Shown here: positions 8,948-54,462 of the stretch, in pieces | How the letters are laid out: each line of letters begins with the position of its first letter | How positions within the stretch are numbered: position 1 is the stretch's first letter | Virus record (IMG/VR): IMGVR_UViG_3300031801_001562 | DNA from: a virus | Taxonomy: Duplodnaviria > Caudoviricetes | DNA: 64,000 bases | Reading direction: 5' to 3' (one strand) | Notes under the pieces: generated by a model | What the model saw: only the letters and a program-made list of their open reading frames with translations | Database searches by the model: none | Told to the model about the DNA's origin: nothing | Translations under genes and position numbers: made by a program

Positions 8948-9391
8948 ATGGCGTACAAAGGAAAATTTAAACCAAAACATCGCGATAAATATAAAGGGAA
9001 CCCCACTAATATAATTTATAGAAGTTTGTGGGAGAGGCGCTTCATGGTTTATTGTGATTTTAATGATAATGTTGTAAAATGGTCTAGTGAGGAAATAGTT
9101 ATACCATATAGATCACCTTTTGATAAGAGGATTCACAAATATTATCCTGATTTTTGGGTTAAAATAAAAAAACATGATGGTACCTTTGAAACATCAGTTA
9201 TTGAAGTTAAACCCAAATCACAAACTATTCCACCTAAGCCTCGTTTGAATAAAAGGAAGAGTGGTAGGTATTTATTAGAAATGAAAAGATATGGCGTAAA
9301 TGAAGCTAAATGGAAAGCTGCTACCACATTTTGTGAGTATAAAAATTGGAAATTTAAAATTATAACAGAAGATCAATTGCTCTCTAAATAA
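8948..9391 (+). CDS. gp4: Head completion nuclease gp4
   Basis: MAYKGKFKP....KYKGNPTNIIYRSLWERRFMVYCD...WSSEE..IPY..P.D...H.Y.PDF...EVKP...N.AKW.AA. Confidence 0.93.
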   Translation: MAYKGKFKPKHRDKYKGNPTNIIYRSLWERRFMVYCDFNDNVVKWSSEEIVIPYRSPFDKRIHKYYPDFWVKIKKHDGTFETSVIEVKPKSQTIPPKPRLNKRKSGRYLLEMKRYGVNEAKWKAATTFCEYKNWKFKIITEDQLLSK

Positions 9392-10028: not shown

Positions 10029-10592
10029 ATGAATACAGATATCTTTTTATCGAAAATTGACGGTGAAAAAGGTTTAGCTCCTTTAAATAGATTTGTAGCA
10101 AGGTTTAAGATGCCGAGCATGGTCGCGGTCGGTGAAACTGAAATATTATCTTATCTGTGTGATTCCGCCCCGATGCCAGGAAGAACAATAGCGACTTCAG
10201 AATTAAGACATTATGGTCCGACTCGAAAACTAGCAAGAGAAGCAACTTATCCGGAACTCCAATTAGGATTTATATTAACAAACGCTATGTCGGCAAGAAA
10301 AACGTTTTTAAATTGGATGGATTATATAATTGATCCAGAATCAGCAAATATTCAATATCAGGATGAATATAAAGGGCAAGTTGATATATTAATGTTTGAT
10401 CAATACTCGGAATCTGCTACGCAAGATGCAATTGCTGTTGCTCAATATTTAGAGGCCTTCCCAACCAATGTTGATCCTATTAGTTTGGGTTGGGATCAAA
10501 TGAATCAAGTAGGAAAATTTAGTGTGAATTTTCAATATAAAAGATGGATAGACGGAAGACAGAAAGCGACGGATGATAGTCCATCTCACTGA
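10029..10592 (+). CDS. gp54: Tail tube initiator / gp54-like (gp19 tube fold)
   Basis: LCDSAPMPGRTIAT.E.R.YGP.R..., F..WMD.I, Y..EY...V.I, EAFP..V..I.L.W...N....F.V.F.Y..W. Confidence 0.72.
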   Translation: MNTDIFLSKIDGEKGLAPLNRFVARFKMPSMVAVGETEILSYLCDSAPMPGRTIATSELRHYGPTRKLAREATYPELQLGFILTNAMSARKTFLNWMDYIIDPESANIQYQDEYKGQVDILMFDQYSESATQDAIAVAQYLEAFPTNVDPISLGWDQMNQVGKFSVNFQYKRWIDGRQKATDDSPSH

Positions 10593-10619: not shown

Positions 10620-11330
10620 ATGGCTTTACCAAGTGTGGGTAATCCTACCTATGAACTTAAATTACATAGTGTAGATCACAAAATAAAATATAGACCTTTT
10701 CTAGTTAAAGAAGAAAAGATTTTACTAACGGCTCTTGAAGGCGGTGAAACAGCGGACATCGTGAGAGCCACAAAAGAAATTATCAGTAATTGTTGTCTTG
10801 ATGATAGTATTGATATTCAAAAACTTCCTGCTTTTGATATTGAATTATTTTTTCTAAATTTAAGAGCTCGTTCAGTTGGAGAAACTGTTGAAATCAGCAT
10901 GAGTTGTCAAACCAAAGATTGTGACGAATCTACTCCAATTAAAGTTAATCTTGAGAAAATTGGTTTGGAGATCAGCAAAGATCATACGGATGTAATAAGA
11001 CTTACTAATAAAATAAAAGTTAAATTAAAATATCCTGATATTGATAGAATGACAAGACCGCCTGAAGAATCACAAATGGATTCTATTTTTGAAATCACCA
11101 AAGCATGTATAGAATCTATTTGGGACGGTGACGAAATACATGATATAAGAGATTATACAGAACAAGAATTAGAAGATTTTATAATGTCTTTAAATCAACA
11201 ACAATTCGGGAAACTAATTGGTTATTTTAATACCATGCCCAAGTTAAAACATAAGGTAGAATTTACTTGTCCAAAATGTGGCAGTAAACAAGAGTCAGTC
11301 CTGGAGGGGCTGCAAAGTTTTTTCGGTTAG
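10620..11330 (+). CDS. gp26: Baseplate hub assembly protein gp26
   Basis: MALPSVGNPTYELKL...IKYRPFLVKEEKILL...FDIELFFLNLRARSVGE...MPKLKH...CPKC...LEGLQSFF. Confidence 0.9.
   Translation: MALPSVGNPTYELKLHSVDHKIKYRPFLVKEEKILLTALEGGETADIVRATKEIISNCCLDDSIDIQKLPAFDIELFFLNLRARSVGETVEISMSCQTKDCDESTPIKVNLEKIGLEISKDHTDVIRLTNKIKVKLKYPDIDRMTRPPEESQMDSIFEITKACIESIWDGDEIHDIRDYTEQELEDFIMSLNQQQFGKLIGYFNTMPKLKHKVEFTCPKCGSKQESVLEGLQSFFG
11318..11324 (+). promoter_or_regulatory. Candidate -1 ribosomal frameshift slippery heptamer T TTT TTC at the end of gp26
   Basis: gp26 ends AGT TTT TTC GGT TAG, so the X XXY YYZ heptamer is in the correct phase. The -1 frame reads CGG TTA GCG CTC GGC CAT... into the gp51-like ORF. 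Confidence 0.6.
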
Positions 11331-11524
11331 CGCTCGGCCATAATAATTTACATAATTATTATAAAACTCTATTCGCGGTTGTACAAGGTCATAAGTGGAG
11401 TTTAACCGAGCTAGAAAATTTAATTTGTTATGAAAGAGAAATATATCTCACATTATTAATAGAACATATTGAAGAAGAAAATGAAAGAATGGAAAAGGAA
11501 GCCAATAAAATGAGAAATAGTTAA
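11324..11524 (+). CDS. gp51: gp51-like small baseplate assembly chaperone segment with no start codon of its own
   Basis: Hand translation RLALGHNNLHNYYKTLFAVVQGHKWSLTELENLICYEREIYLTLLIEHIEEEN...RNS* resembles the short gp51 of marine T4-like phages. No ATG/GTG/TTG lies between the in-frame TAA at 11285 and the conserved body. Confidence 0.78.
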   Translation, partial: RLALGHNNLHNYYKTLFAVVQGHKWSLTELENLICYEREIYLTLLIEHIEEENERMEKEANKMRNS

Positions 11525-11535
11525 AAGGAAATTAA

Positions 11536-13836
11536 ATGGCTGAAGAAAAAGTAACTGTAAAAGGAACCACTAAAACCGATCCGGCAGAAATGTCTGCCCG
11601 ACAAAAATGGCAAGCTAACATGTCTGCTCAGCTGGGCGAACAGACTGCGGGCCAAACGCAGTTTGCAGATACTATGAAAAACATGATGGGGGGTTTTAAG
11701 ACCGATGAAGCGCTAGCGCAGCAGACTAAAATGTCCGGTTTGCTTACGAGTGTTAAAACTGCATCGTTTAAGACAGCAAATTTATTAGAAGGTTATATTG
11801 ACTTCATGAAAGATGCTGAACGCAAACGATTAGAAGCCGCAATGGAAGCCGCGCGTCTAAAAGATAAAGATAAAGACAAAGGTGGTCCAGCAATTGAAAA
11901 AGCCAAAGAATCGGAATTTGGTTTAGGTGGACTTGCTGCTGGATTAGCAGCCGCCTTAGGTGCAGGAATACTTGCATTTAAAGAAAAATGGGGAAACATG
12001 TTCTCTCTTTTTGGAAATGACCTTGATGAATTTGGTAAGCCAAAAGCGAGTTTCTTTTCGAAGATAAAAAAATTCCTTGGTTTTGGTGATGATGCTGCAG
12101 ATATTAAAAATCTTGGTAAGGCGAAAGTAGGCTTTTTTGCTAAACTAGGATCATGGCTTGGCTTTAAAACATCACTTCCAAAAGATCTCGCAAAGAGCAA
12201 AACTAGCTTTGTTGATGATATAGCAAAATTTTTTAGATTTGATAAAGATGTCCCCGGAAACCTGCTGAAGAACCAAAAGAAATTCATGGCCTCTCACGCG
12301 GCTATGTTAAATTGGGCAAAAGGCACTGAAAAAATGTCTGATGTGGGCAAATCAAAGTTCTTTAAAACTCAAGCAAATATGTTAAAGTGGCTAGATAAAG
12401 CTGAAGGTTTAAGCGACGCGAAAAAAGCTAGCTTTTTGAAAAAACAATCTAAAATGTTAGAGTGGGTAGCAAAAAATACTAAGGGTATAGATGCGAGCAA
12501 ATTAAAGTTTATAAAAGGCCAATCTAAAATGTTAGAATGGGCTGCCGAAAATATGGACGCATCCAAAAGTCAAAAACTAAAATTCCTCAAAAAGCATGCC
12601 AATATATTAGATATTGGTGATGACATTATGGATAAGTCAAAAATTGCTAAAGGTTCATTTTTTGAAAAACAATTGAAAATGTTGGGTTTATCGCCGGATG
12701 ATGTTGATGGCGTCCGATTGAAAAAAGAAGGTATGTTTTCTAAATTGAAAACTAAAATTTTTCATGTAGGCGATGATATTGTAAAAGGTGTTTCCAACTT
12801 GAAAAATAGTTTCTCTACAAAAATGACCAAATTTTTAACCTTCCCGGCAATAGATGAAGGTAGTAAATTAGGAAAATTTAAAGCTGGATTCTTTACTTCG
12901 ATGGATAATATGTTAGGAACTTTGCTAAAAATTACAAAAGGATTTTTTAAATTAGTAAACGTACTTAGCTTTAATTCTATGGGATTTTTAAACGCGGAAG
13001 CTCTCAAGCACCCAATAGAAACTTTTAAAAAGTTTAAAAATTCGATTGGTGCTGCATTTGGCAAGGAAGGCGCTTTCGGTAAAATTGCTAATACATTTAA
13101 AGCTATAATGGCTCCTTTCGAGACTTGGATGAAACCTATAAAAGGTATTTTAAAAGCAGTGAAGGTAATCGGAAAACTCATAGGTAGGATTTTTATTCCT
13201 ATTGGTTTCTTATTCGCCGCATTTGATGTTATATCAAATGTTATGAAGGGTTATGAAGAAGGAGGTATTACAGGCGCAATAGGAGCCGGTATAGAGTCTA
13301 TATTCGATGATGTATTATTCATTATCCCAAATCTTTTAGGTGAGGCAGTTGCATGGTTATTAAAGAAATTTGGTTTTAAGAATGCTGTAAAATTTATTGA
13401 TGAAAATTTAAGAGATTCAGATGGGAATTTTTCTTTATTTACTGGAATAAAAAATTTATTTAGTTCATTAATGGATGCTGTCAATGAGATATGGACCAAA
13501 GTAATGAAATTTATGAGTATTGATAATATTTTGACAATGATTGGAGCAAAACTTTACAAAAGTAATATGCCAGGTTCTGATGCCATGGCAAATGCGTTAT
13601 TAAGTGAAAAATTTGAGAAGAGAGCTAAACTACGTGCGAAAAGCGAAGAAGATTATCAAAAACTAGTTGAAAGTGAAACTAGACAATCGGATCTGGCAGA
13701 TGCAAGGCGAAAACCATCAAGCGGTAATATACAGGCCAACGATAACAGCGCAACCAGTGTAACAAACAATATCACAAGCTATCAAGCACCATCAACAGAA
13801 GTTAAAAAAGATTCATACTCCAAGAAGAAATCCTAG
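11536..13836 (+). CDS. Tape-measure-like protein (gp29 position)
   Basis: 766 aa, helical K/A/G/F-rich, periodic repeats, hydrophobic Gly-rich stretches; follows gp26/gp51; has an AAGGA RBS. Confidence 0.65.
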   Translation: MAEEKVTVKGTTKTDPAEMSARQKWQANMSAQLGEQTAGQTQFADTMKNMMGGFKTDEALAQQTKMSGLLTSVKTASFKTANLLEGYIDFMKDAERKRLEAAMEAARLKDKDKDKGGPAIEKAKESEFGLGGLAAGLAAALGAGILAFKEKWGNMFSLFGNDLDEFGKPKASFFSKIKKFLGFGDDAADIKNLGKAKVGFFAKLGSWLGFKTSLPKDLAKSKTSFVDDIAKFFRFDKDVPGNLLKNQKKFMASHAAMLNWAKGTEKMSDVGKSKFFKTQANMLKWLDKAEGLSDAKKASFLKKQSKMLEWVAKNTKGIDASKLKFIKGQSKMLEWAAENMDASKSQKLKFLKKHANILDIGDDIMDKSKIAKGSFFEKQLKMLGLSPDDVDGVRLKKEGMFSKLKTKIFHVGDDIVKGVSNLKNSFSTKMTKFLTFPAIDEGSKLGKFKAGFFTSMDNMLGTLLKITKGFFKLVNVLSFNSMGFLNAEALKHPIETFKKFKNSIGAAFGKEGAFGKIANTFKAIMAPFETWMKPIKGILKAVKVIGKLIGRIFIPIGFLFAAFDVISNVMKGYEEGGITGAIGAGIESIFDDVLFIIPNLLGEAVAWLLKKFGFKNAVKFIDENLRDSDGNFSLFTGIKNLFSSLMDAVNEIWTKVMKFMSIDNILTMIGAKLYKSNMPGSDAMANALLSEKFEKRAKLRAKSEEDYQKLVESETRQSDLADARRKPSSGNIQANDNSATSVTNNITSYQAPSTEVKKDSYSKKKS
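12037..12792 (+). repeat. About 10 tandem degenerate 25-aa (75-nt) repeats in the tape-measure-like gene
   Basis: Units such as VGKSKFFKTQANMLKWLDKAEGLSD / AKKASFLKKQSKMLEWVAKNTKGID / ASKLKFIKGQSKMLEWAAENMDASK. At DNA level caatctaaaatgttaga recurs at 12445 and 12520. Confidence 0.8.
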
Positions 13837-52874: not shown

Positions 52875-53041
52875 TTCCCTCCGCGCTTCTTCCACTGCTC
52901 AGGATACTTTTCTCGTAATATCTCATCTATAGAATCTTCAAATGCTTTGCTATTTCTGCCTGGTTTATAAGTACAAGGAAATTTAAAATCTTTATTCCCA
53001 AAGTTTTTTTTCCAAAAGTTGACTATCTTGTTTATTATCAT
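52871..53041 (-). CDS. 56-aa hypothetical protein
   Basis: Hand translation MIINKIVNFWKKNFGNKDFKFPCTYKPGRNSKAFEDSIDEILREKYPEQWKKRGGK; ATGA overlaps at both ends. Confidence 0.7.
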   Translation of the reverse strand: MIINKIVNFWKKNFGNKDFKFPCTYKPGRNSKAFEDSIDEILREKYPEQWKKRGGK

Positions 53042-54462
53042 ACATGTACCATAGTCAAAAAATCATCATGTGTAATATTGTTTGAATAATCTATATCGTA
53101 ATCAGGCTCTGTCCAATCTACATATTTCATATTTTTTGTTTTGTTTAAGTACGGTTTTTCGTAACCAATTAACATTGATGCAAGGTTAAAATGATTAAAA
53201 ATGGTTTCTCCTTTTTTACAATATCTCTTTTTAGAAAGAAACATATTCAAATAATCATTATATTCTTCAATGTTTTGTTGATTATTCCAATATCTCCAAA
53301 ATTCGGAATCAGTTCTGTCACTCAATGTATAATGATATTTTACAAATTCTTTTGAATGTTTGAGAAATCTTTTGAGATGCCTAGATAAAACTTTAGATTC
53401 TTTTGAAGTCCATTTCTTTTTCTTTTTATATTGGTCTACAAAATTAATTACCGTCACACAGGTTAACATCAATGAAGTCGCTTCCATAGGTTCTATAAAA
53501 CTCTGTGCCAGCCCATTTGATATGCAATTATCGACCGCAACATTTTTCATAGATCCATTTTCATATTTTATGCAATCAAATACAAAATCTATTTGGCCAT
53601 TCCAAGCATCTTTTAAAATTTTTCTTGCCTCATCATCAGTAGTAAAATAATCTGAATAGATAAATCCACCCGCAGTTCTATTACGTGTGTTCACATCCCA
53701 CAACCATCCATCAGGTTTTGCAGTCAATTCCGTATAAATTTTATGTTGTTTAGGAACACCTCTGACTTTTCCAGCAACAAATTTATTACAAATCATGTCA
53801 TCATAACTTTCATAATCAGACAATTTTGAAATCAAAACTCTATTAAAACCAGAGCAATCAAAAAATACATCACCATATACGGTTTGGCCATTTTCTAAAC
53901 GTAAAAATTCTATACCATTTTCATTTATGCAAACATCTTTTACACCACTGGTAATTAATGTGTAATCATTGAGATGTTTCTGTAATGTCGCTCCAAATTT
54001 ATCTGCTAATATTTGATATGCATGCCCTGGTCGATCACTAATTGTTTTTGGATAAGGAGTTAAATTTTTATCAAGCAAATATTGTTGAGGACCGTGAAAT
54101 AAATTAAAATATTTTGTGGACATATCTAAATTATTGATACAATACTCAACAGAATCTACTTTTGTTTCTGAAAATTCGAAAGCATCTTCAAATAAATGAT
54201 ACCACACGCTACCTGAATAATTCCAATCATTAAATTTAATTCCATATTTAAATGTAGCATCACTATCTTTTAACCAAACATTTTCTGAAATATTTGCATT
54301 TTCGGCTATCAAACGCAATGTCGGTGTTACTGTTTCACCAACACCAATCGGGTTATTTTGCTCTTCGTGAATAACTGTCAACTCACAATCAATAGAATTT
54401 TTTATATAACTAGCAGTTGTCCAACCTGCGGAACCGCCACCGACTACTACGATTCTAACCAT
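53038..54462 (-). CDS. Tryptophan-halogenase-family flavoprotein
   Basis: VVGGGSAGW, IGVGE, TFKYGIKF.DW, DCSGF, WLWDV, FIEPMEAT. Confidence 0.9.
   Translation of the reverse strand: MVRIVVVGGGSAGWTTASYIKNSIDCELTVIHEEQNNPIGVGETVTPTLRLIAENANISENVWLKDSDATFKYGIKFNDWNYSGSVWYHLFEDAFEFSETKVDSVEYCINNLDMSTKYFNLFHGPQQYLLDKNLTPYPKTISDRPGHAYQILADKFGATLQKHLNDYTLITSGVKDVCINENGIEFLRLENGQTVYGDVFFDCSGFNRVLISKLSDYESYDDMICNKFVAGKVRGVPKQHKIYTELTAKPDGWLWDVNTRNRTAGGFIYSDYFTTDDEARKILKDAWNGQIDFVFDCIKYENGSMKNVAVDNCISNGLAQSFIEPMEATSLMLTCVTVINFVDQYKKKKKWTSKESKVLSRHLKRFLKHSKEFVKYHYTLSDRTDSEFWRYWNNQQNIEEYNDYLNMFLSKKRYCKKGETIFNHFNLASMLIGYEKPYLNKTKNMKYVDWTEPDYDIDYSNNITHDDFLTMVHV

Follow-up and report, generated by a model that had tools for sequence, protein, structure and literature searches.

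Introduction

The gp51-like segment in the tail region of this uncultured marine T4-like phage raises a simple question: how is a coding sequence expressed that has no start codon of its own? The window (the whole stretch of DNA analysed, 64,000 nt in length) carries a T4-like tail and baseplate block, in which a gp26-type gene is followed, in the −1 frame, by a short segment resembling part of gp51. T4-like phages have been regarded as lacking the frameshifted pair of tail chaperones that is found in most long-tailed phages, and for which Xu, Hendrix and Duda are said to have described, in 2004, a conserved −1 frameshift of the tail assembly chaperone genes. In T4 itself both gp26 and gp51 are needed and are encoded by separate genes; both are classed as hub assembly chaperones, and the particle does not contain gp51 (PMC3004832). 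A search of the full-text literature outside subscription journals found no report of a slip between gp26 and gp51.

Identity and neighbourhood of the gp26-type gene

The gp26 reading frame was identified by its matches to PF12322 (T4_baseplate; E 7e-63, 212.6 bits against a gathering cut-off of 24.5 in Pfam) and to phrog_150 ('baseplate hub', E 5e-67 in PHROG). One PF12322 gene and one −1-frame extension, here called the T segment, are present within the 64-kb window. A tail-tube-like gene lies directly upstream of gp26, and 12 nt past the T-segment stop begins a gene for a 766-aa protein (Table 1). The latter protein had no match in Pfam, PHROG or PDB sequences, and PDB sequence searches with it and with a gp26 profile gave nothing useful. 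It is probably the tape measure protein, an analogue of gp29, on the basis of its position, its size and its nearest named Atlas clusters (PF25671 T4_Tape_measure, score 0.93, a language-model lead only). The order tube-like gene, gp26, T segment and tape-measure-like gene, which an earlier note on this DNA had given, holds.

Table 1. Positions of the features at the gp26/T-segment locus of the window
Feature	Position	Strand	Evidence or remark
Tail-tube-like protein (gp54-like), directly upstream of gp26	10029..10592	+	PF23849 Phage_TTP_2 E 2e-11; phrog_45 E 4e-33
gp26-type gene, short (G-like) form, 236 aa	10620..11330	+	0-frame stop TAG 11328-11330
Long form (conceptual), 301 aa	10620..11324 then 11324..11524	+	by −1 slip; first 235 residues same as short form
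Shine-Dalgarno-like GGAGGGG, candidate upstream stimulator	11303..11309	+	GGAGG core 11303-11307 ends 10 nt before heptamer
Slippery heptamer T TTT TTC, X XXY YYZ phase	11318..11324	+	116/118 loci; 89/89 unique haplotypes
T segment, 66 aa, predicted C-terminal extension of the long (gp51-type) form	11324..11524	+	stop TAA 11522-11524; phrog_634 E 1e-25
All-A/U hairpin, 9 bp, doubtful stimulator	11340..11362	+	starts 15 nt past heptamer
Probable tape measure protein (gp29 analogue), 766 aa, directly downstream	11536..13836	+	position, size

The gp26 protein was modelled with AF2 (pLDDT 86). When residues 1-96 of the model were compared with known structures by VIA-align, the top three matches were 3fgx (Z 8.0), YqbN 3klu (Z 7.1) and the HK97 tail assembly chaperone 2ob9 (Z 7.0), with 81-86 residues aligned and the next match at Z 5.5; values of 7-8 are moderate and, according to the tool, common for best hits. 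YqbN belongs to the tail cluster of a PBSX-like prophage. Foldseek gave no match to the gp26 model in the PDB, and Pfam recognised PF12322 alone, and no Phage_TAC family, in the N-terminal 100 residues. The resemblance of the modelled N-terminal domain to the tail assembly chaperone fold is suggestive only. The C-terminal half of gp26 is extra and zinc-ribbon-like.

Conservation of the slippery heptamer

The last codons of gp26 are AGT TTT TTC GGT TAG, and the heptamer T TTT TTC is in phase within them with the stop one codon later, as the earlier note had read it. Since TTTTTTC occurs 57 times on the plus strand of the 32% G+C window, one heptamer by itself is unremarkable, and its weight comes from conservation. 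The set of loci compared comprised 24 IMG/VR loci of the window's own clade (gp26 64-94% identical), 80 P-SSM2-like cyanophage loci, loci of Vibrio and Aeromonas phages, and the annotated records of S-SSM4, P-SSM2, RB33, Desulfovibrio phage 7757, Stenotrophomonas phage Ps15, Aeromonas CC2, Vibrio VH7D and Cba120; a query of IMG/VR with the Desulfovibrio phage found no relative. At 116 of the 118 loci (complete gene end) the 0-frame stop follows exactly one codon after the heptamer, and the two exceptions to the heptamer are RB33 and Cba120. The site is common to lineages in which gp26 is only 20-43% identical, namely the window's clade, Kyanoviridae, Schizotequatrovirus, Ceceduovirus, Menderavirus and a Desulfovibrio phage. 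Terminal codons of the form NNT TTT TTC are retained by the orthologs, and their gp51-like frame is −1 in every case, which is the outcome that the earlier note had looked for in its ortholog check.

Codon usage at the site is constrained. Among the 89 haplotypes the codon 5′ of the Phe pair is AGT, AAT, TCT, GAT or GCT and always ends in T; the first Phe codon is TTT in 89/89 and the second TTC in 89/89, while the rest of the gene uses 83% TTT and 17% TTC. The three synonymous positions of the heptamer are invariant, and flanking two-fold codons vary (Gln CAA 46, CAG 31; Glu GAA 51, GAG 21). The Stenotrophomonas phage, with 54% G+C and TTT making up 17% of its Phe codons, still keeps GAT TTT TTC. 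A rough product over six lineages, calculated from codon frequencies, came to about 2e-6. However, the C of TTC, which never varies, also opens a −1-frame Arg codon. That codon explains the C as well, and this base is therefore not an independent signal of slipperiness. The same Arg codon shows that the −1 frame is under selection from the codon straddling the heptamer onward.

Two related sites were observed. A second TTTTTTC lies inside gp26 at 10848-10854 of the window, read as codons TTT TTT C and thus outside the slip phase; it is conserved within the window's clade, and no open −1 frame follows it. Ackermannviridae-type relatives have NTT TTC NNN stop at the slip position, in which only the half-site U UUC remains and the geometry is unchanged: ATT TTC ATT TAA in Cba120 (locus L032, 2790-2807) and CTT TTC AAG TAA in Vibrio phage K353 (locus L121, 2362-2379). 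A homologous −1 ORF (MPWHL motif, phrog_9633) follows this half-site, which may work by a single-tRNA slip or by some other mechanism.

Coding constraint on the T segment

In the window the −1 frame has a TAA at 11285-11287 and is open over 11288-11521 (78 codons). Its first ATG, GTG or TTG is codon 67 of the 78 (ATG 11489), which bears out the statement of the earlier note that the gp51-like frame, bounded by a stop at 11285, has no such codon before its conserved body. ATT, ATA, ATC and CTG are likewise absent before the conserved body of this frame, and throughout the window's clade no canonical or near-cognate start occurs before codon 43. The −1 product matched phrog_634 ('baseplate hub assembly catalyst', gp51) at profile positions 54-120 of 121 only, and weakly matched the C-terminal end of phrog_150. 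Pairwise comparison within the window's clade, in which the segment is without a start codon, gave dN/dS values of 0.07-0.26 with dS up to above 1, and the other two frames are closed. Judged from these substitution patterns, the −1 segment is a translated coding sequence under purifying selection; a pseudogene was rejected on the same values.

The T segment is predicted to form a helical hairpin (pLDDT 86). A complex prediction of the segment with the upstream tube-like protein scored 0.00, a value that has no bearing on binding either way. In the records of S-SSM4 (locus L001, 2606-2792), CC2 (locus L030, 2697-2863) and VH7D (locus L031, after 2831) the segment is unannotated and appears as a 'gap' of 170-190 bp; in those of P-SSM2 and Ps15 an ORF of 54-57 aa has been called in its place.

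Collinearity of the conceptual fusion with T4-type gp51

The fusion of about 301 aa that the earlier note had predicted from a −1 slip comes to 301 aa, with the predicted junction, ...LQSFF-RLALGHNN... In BLASTP against T4-type gp51 it gave a single alignment (residues 23-280 against 15-244, E 3e-4) that crosses the junction. When fusions from seven lineages were aligned together with gp51, no gap fell at the junction, and phrog_150 spans both parts of the fusion. This collinearity was observed directly, as were the sequence signals, their conservation and the coding constraint on the −1 segment. The junction tryptic peptide derived from the window's sequence is QESVLEGLQSFFR then LALGHNNLHNYYK, and the 0-frame C-terminal peptide ends in ...SFFG. 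For the window's gp26, the best 120 homologs in the database span 143-248 aa in length (232-248 aa where full-length), and 0/120 are single-ORF fusions.

The T4-type phage RB33 allows the two proteins to be compared as separate entities. There, gene 26 and gene 51 stand apart and are transcribed divergently, and their products are detectable paralogs. RB33 gp26 consists of PF12322 alone, while RB33 gp51 (249 aa) consists of PF12322 over residues 1-201 (E 4e-55) and, behind it, a C-terminal extension with matches to phrog_634 and to the end of phrog_150. By this sequence comparison, T4 gp51 is a full-length gp26 paralog plus the segment, that is, the equivalent of GT, and the short ORF found here is its C-terminal part only. 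A PF12322 search of complete records found one gene each in P-SSM2, VH7D, CC2 and Ps15, in which the slip site is present, and two in RB33, in which there is no slip site. The two-gene layout was also found in Dhakavirus and in an Acinetobacter Lazarusvirus. The contrast between records with one gene and a slip site and records with two genes, together with the unfused homologs, suggests that these phages have either a slip site or a separate gp51, and not both.

The present pair therefore resembles T4 gp26/gp51 in its family, PF12322, with a short form similar to gp26 and a conceptual long form collinear with gp51 including the C-terminal extension. It differs from RB33, Dhakavirus and the Acinetobacter Lazarusvirus in that those T4-type phages have two divergent paralogous genes and no slip site, whereas here one gene would have to supply both products. 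The earlier note had read the locus as a lambda G/GT-like pair in a T4-like phage; in T4 proper, where the genes are separate and divergent, no slip is involved. On balance we favour the view that the long form is a true ortholog of gp51, that the T4-like superfamily uses a G/GT-type pair for the tape measure and the hub, that the frameshift is widespread and probably ancestral, and that Tevenvirinae and Twarogvirinae replaced it by a duplicated, divergently transcribed gene. In the record of Acinetobacter phage Berthold (locus L119, 927-2394) both gp51 and gp26 have been annotated by the depositors as 'tape measure protein assembly chaperone'. This label means that the functional analogy is already in use among annotators, and in none of the records examined is the slip annotated.

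Signals around the slip site

An element resembling a Shine-Dalgarno sequence precedes the heptamer. Its Glu codon is GAG in 78 of 82 haplotypes, compared with 24% GAG and 76% GAA elsewhere in gp26. Of 100 unique genes, 74 have their strongest anti-Shine-Dalgarno match at this element, whose value in the window is −9.8 kcal/mol. The element is, on the codon evidence, selected at synonymous sites. The Stenotrophomonas phage is without it.

Downstream of the heptamer, the fold energy of the window's hairpin is no better than that of shuffled sequences (z −0.12). In relatives the hairpin shows one compensatory path from A-U through G-U to G-C, and in others two kinds of breaks; RNAalifold found no consensus structure in 16 diverse junctions. 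A stable stem-loop of the dnaX type, 5-9 nt downstream of the heptamer, is not supported in the window. In P-SSM2-like loci (L034, L043, L046, L102 and others) we observed a conserved stem-loop of about 11 bp, 5 nt past the heptamer (−16 to −18 kcal/mol, z about −3). It has the classical spacing of a stimulator and overlaps the ATG annotated as the gp51 start.

The arrangement in the window may be compared with the E. coli dnaX tau/gamma frameshift, in which an internal Shine-Dalgarno-like element reportedly acts as a stimulator (Larsen and co-workers, 1994). Both have such an element about 10 nt upstream of the heptamer. In dnaX, however, there is a strong downstream hairpin and the slip shortens the protein, whereas here the slip would lengthen it and the downstream stem is unsupported in the window.

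Proposed mechanism and alternative explanations

We consider it very probable, on the strength of these comparisons, that the gp26 gene undergoes a programmed −1 ribosomal frameshift of the lambda G/GT kind and that the long product is the equivalent of gp51. Most ribosomes would read gp26 to its stop and give the 236-aa protein. A fraction of them would slip back by one base, with two tRNA-Phe moving on U UUU UUC (11318-11324), and continue in the −1 frame, adding 66 residues to give the 301-aa protein; both the occurrence of the slip and its rate are what we infer here. The GGAGG 10 nt upstream, like its counterpart in E. coli dnaX, probably helps the slip by base-pairing to 16S rRNA. The short form would be the counterpart of T4 gp26 and the long form that of T4 gp51. 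Both would serve as assembly chaperones for the tape measure protein and the baseplate hub, like lambda gpG/gpGT, and neither form would be expected in the virion. The reading of the short gp51 in the earlier note, as the T segment of a frameshift product, is supported by the conservation of the site, the dN/dS values and the collinearity with gp51.

The same 301-aa fusion would arise with no ribosomal slip if RNA polymerase inserted an extra U into the T6 run. As a homopolymer the site would allow this, the resulting protein would be identical, and sequence conservation alone does not tell the two mechanisms apart. Nevertheless, transcriptional slippage seems quite unlikely. The T6 run is always ended by C, and six T are short for efficient slippage by bacterial RNA polymerase; the second T6C run in gp26 (10848-10854) would yield aberrant transcripts too. 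Ackermannviridae-type relatives keep the geometry with only TTTT, and a selected upstream Shine-Dalgarno-like element makes sense solely for a ribosomal event. In addition, one metatranscriptome contig (RNA run X15) covers 11188-11410 with zero differences and reads T6 at the site, albeit at a depth of 4 and in a form, the contig, that hides minor variants; runs X9 (DNA), X16 and X17 (RNA) are without the site. The identity of the X15 contig argues against an assembly error and against editing of the majority of transcripts, and is still compatible with minor transcriptional slippage. A homopolymer error that splits a real 301-aa gene was considered as well, since such runs are error-prone and T7 would give a single ORF, and so was a dead remnant. 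Either is scarcely credible: over 100 independent assemblies share the same T6, isolate genomes of several families among them, no fused ORF occurs among the best 120 homologs, the 0-frame stop always lies one codon past the site, and dN/dS is well below 1. An assembly error was rejected on the independent assemblies and the metatranscriptome contig.

It may also be asked whether there is any recoding at all, or whether ribosomes reach the segment independently, by re-initiation or at an unusual start codon, and make a small gp51-like protein from it. The P-SSM2-like cyanophage clade has an ATG 2-5 nt past the gp26 stop, from which the P-SSM2 annotation draws a 57-aa gp51, and a separate small protein is possible in that clade; ATG, GTG or TTG occurs within 45 nt past the stop in 82 of 113 loci. 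Start codons are nonetheless inconsistent among orthologs. In 29 of the 113 loci there is no ATG, GTG or TTG up to 45 nt past the gp26 stop, and there is none in the window's own clade, where a free-standing small gene was rejected in view of the missing start before the conserved body. Furthermore, amino-acid conservation begins at the codon straddling the heptamer (FF-R-hydrophobic), upstream of the cyanophage ATG. Separate translation would leave unexplained the invariant heptamer, the fusion of the T4 gp51 segment to a PF12322 body and the complementarity of one-gene and two-gene layouts, and we regard it as very improbable.

Comparison with known tail chaperone frameshifts and implications

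Like lambda gpG/gpGT, the two forms proposed here share an N-terminus and would be produced by a −1 slip at a heptamer that lies within a few codons of the first stop. The lambda gene pair lies between tube-type and tape measure genes, and the pair here between a tube-type gene and a probable tape measure gene; the chaperone role and the absence from the virion that are predicted here would agree, and the modelled N-terminal domain of gp26 may share the HK97 chaperone fold. There are also differences. There is no sequence similarity to lambda gpG/gpT and no Pfam Phage_TAC match here; the heptamer is U UUU UUC in place of G GGA AAG; the body is larger, at 236 aa, and the T part is a short helical hairpin of 66 aa. 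In phage P2, the E / E+E′ tail chaperone frameshift, at the heptamer T TTT TTG, was reportedly described by Christie and colleagues in 2002. P2 has a contractile tail, and its −1 slip on six U takes place close to the 3′ end of the first ORF, with the tape measure gene further downstream; its protein family is unrelated by sequence, and its heptamer ends in another base.

If the slip is real, gp51 gains a defined role, and the logic of tail-length control and hub assembly would be unified across contractile and non-contractile tails. If, further, the long form is the true gp51 ortholog, the long-enigmatic 'hub assembly catalyst' gp51 of T4 would be the equivalent of GT. A real slip would also mean that recoding and gene duplication can stand in for each other in nature, with this family as an example. 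In hundreds of genome records the segment is either unannotated or given as a 'gp51' of 55-65 aa with a doubtful start, and a joined CDS is needed.

Other features of the window

At 8948-9391 lies a gene for a gp4-type head closure protein (phrog_218, E 1e-55), which also matches the TnsA-like endonuclease N-terminal domain PF08722 (E 5e-23). On the minus strand, positions 20701-63908 form a one-strand array of about 43 kb with about 45 tightly packed ORFs. Among its products are several radical SAM proteins, two proteins with B12-binding domains, a GHMP kinase, a glycosyltransferase and a tryptophan halogenase (PF04820, E 7e-74; 53038..54462). The array has the look of a biosynthetic island, and it is unusually large for a T4-like phage.
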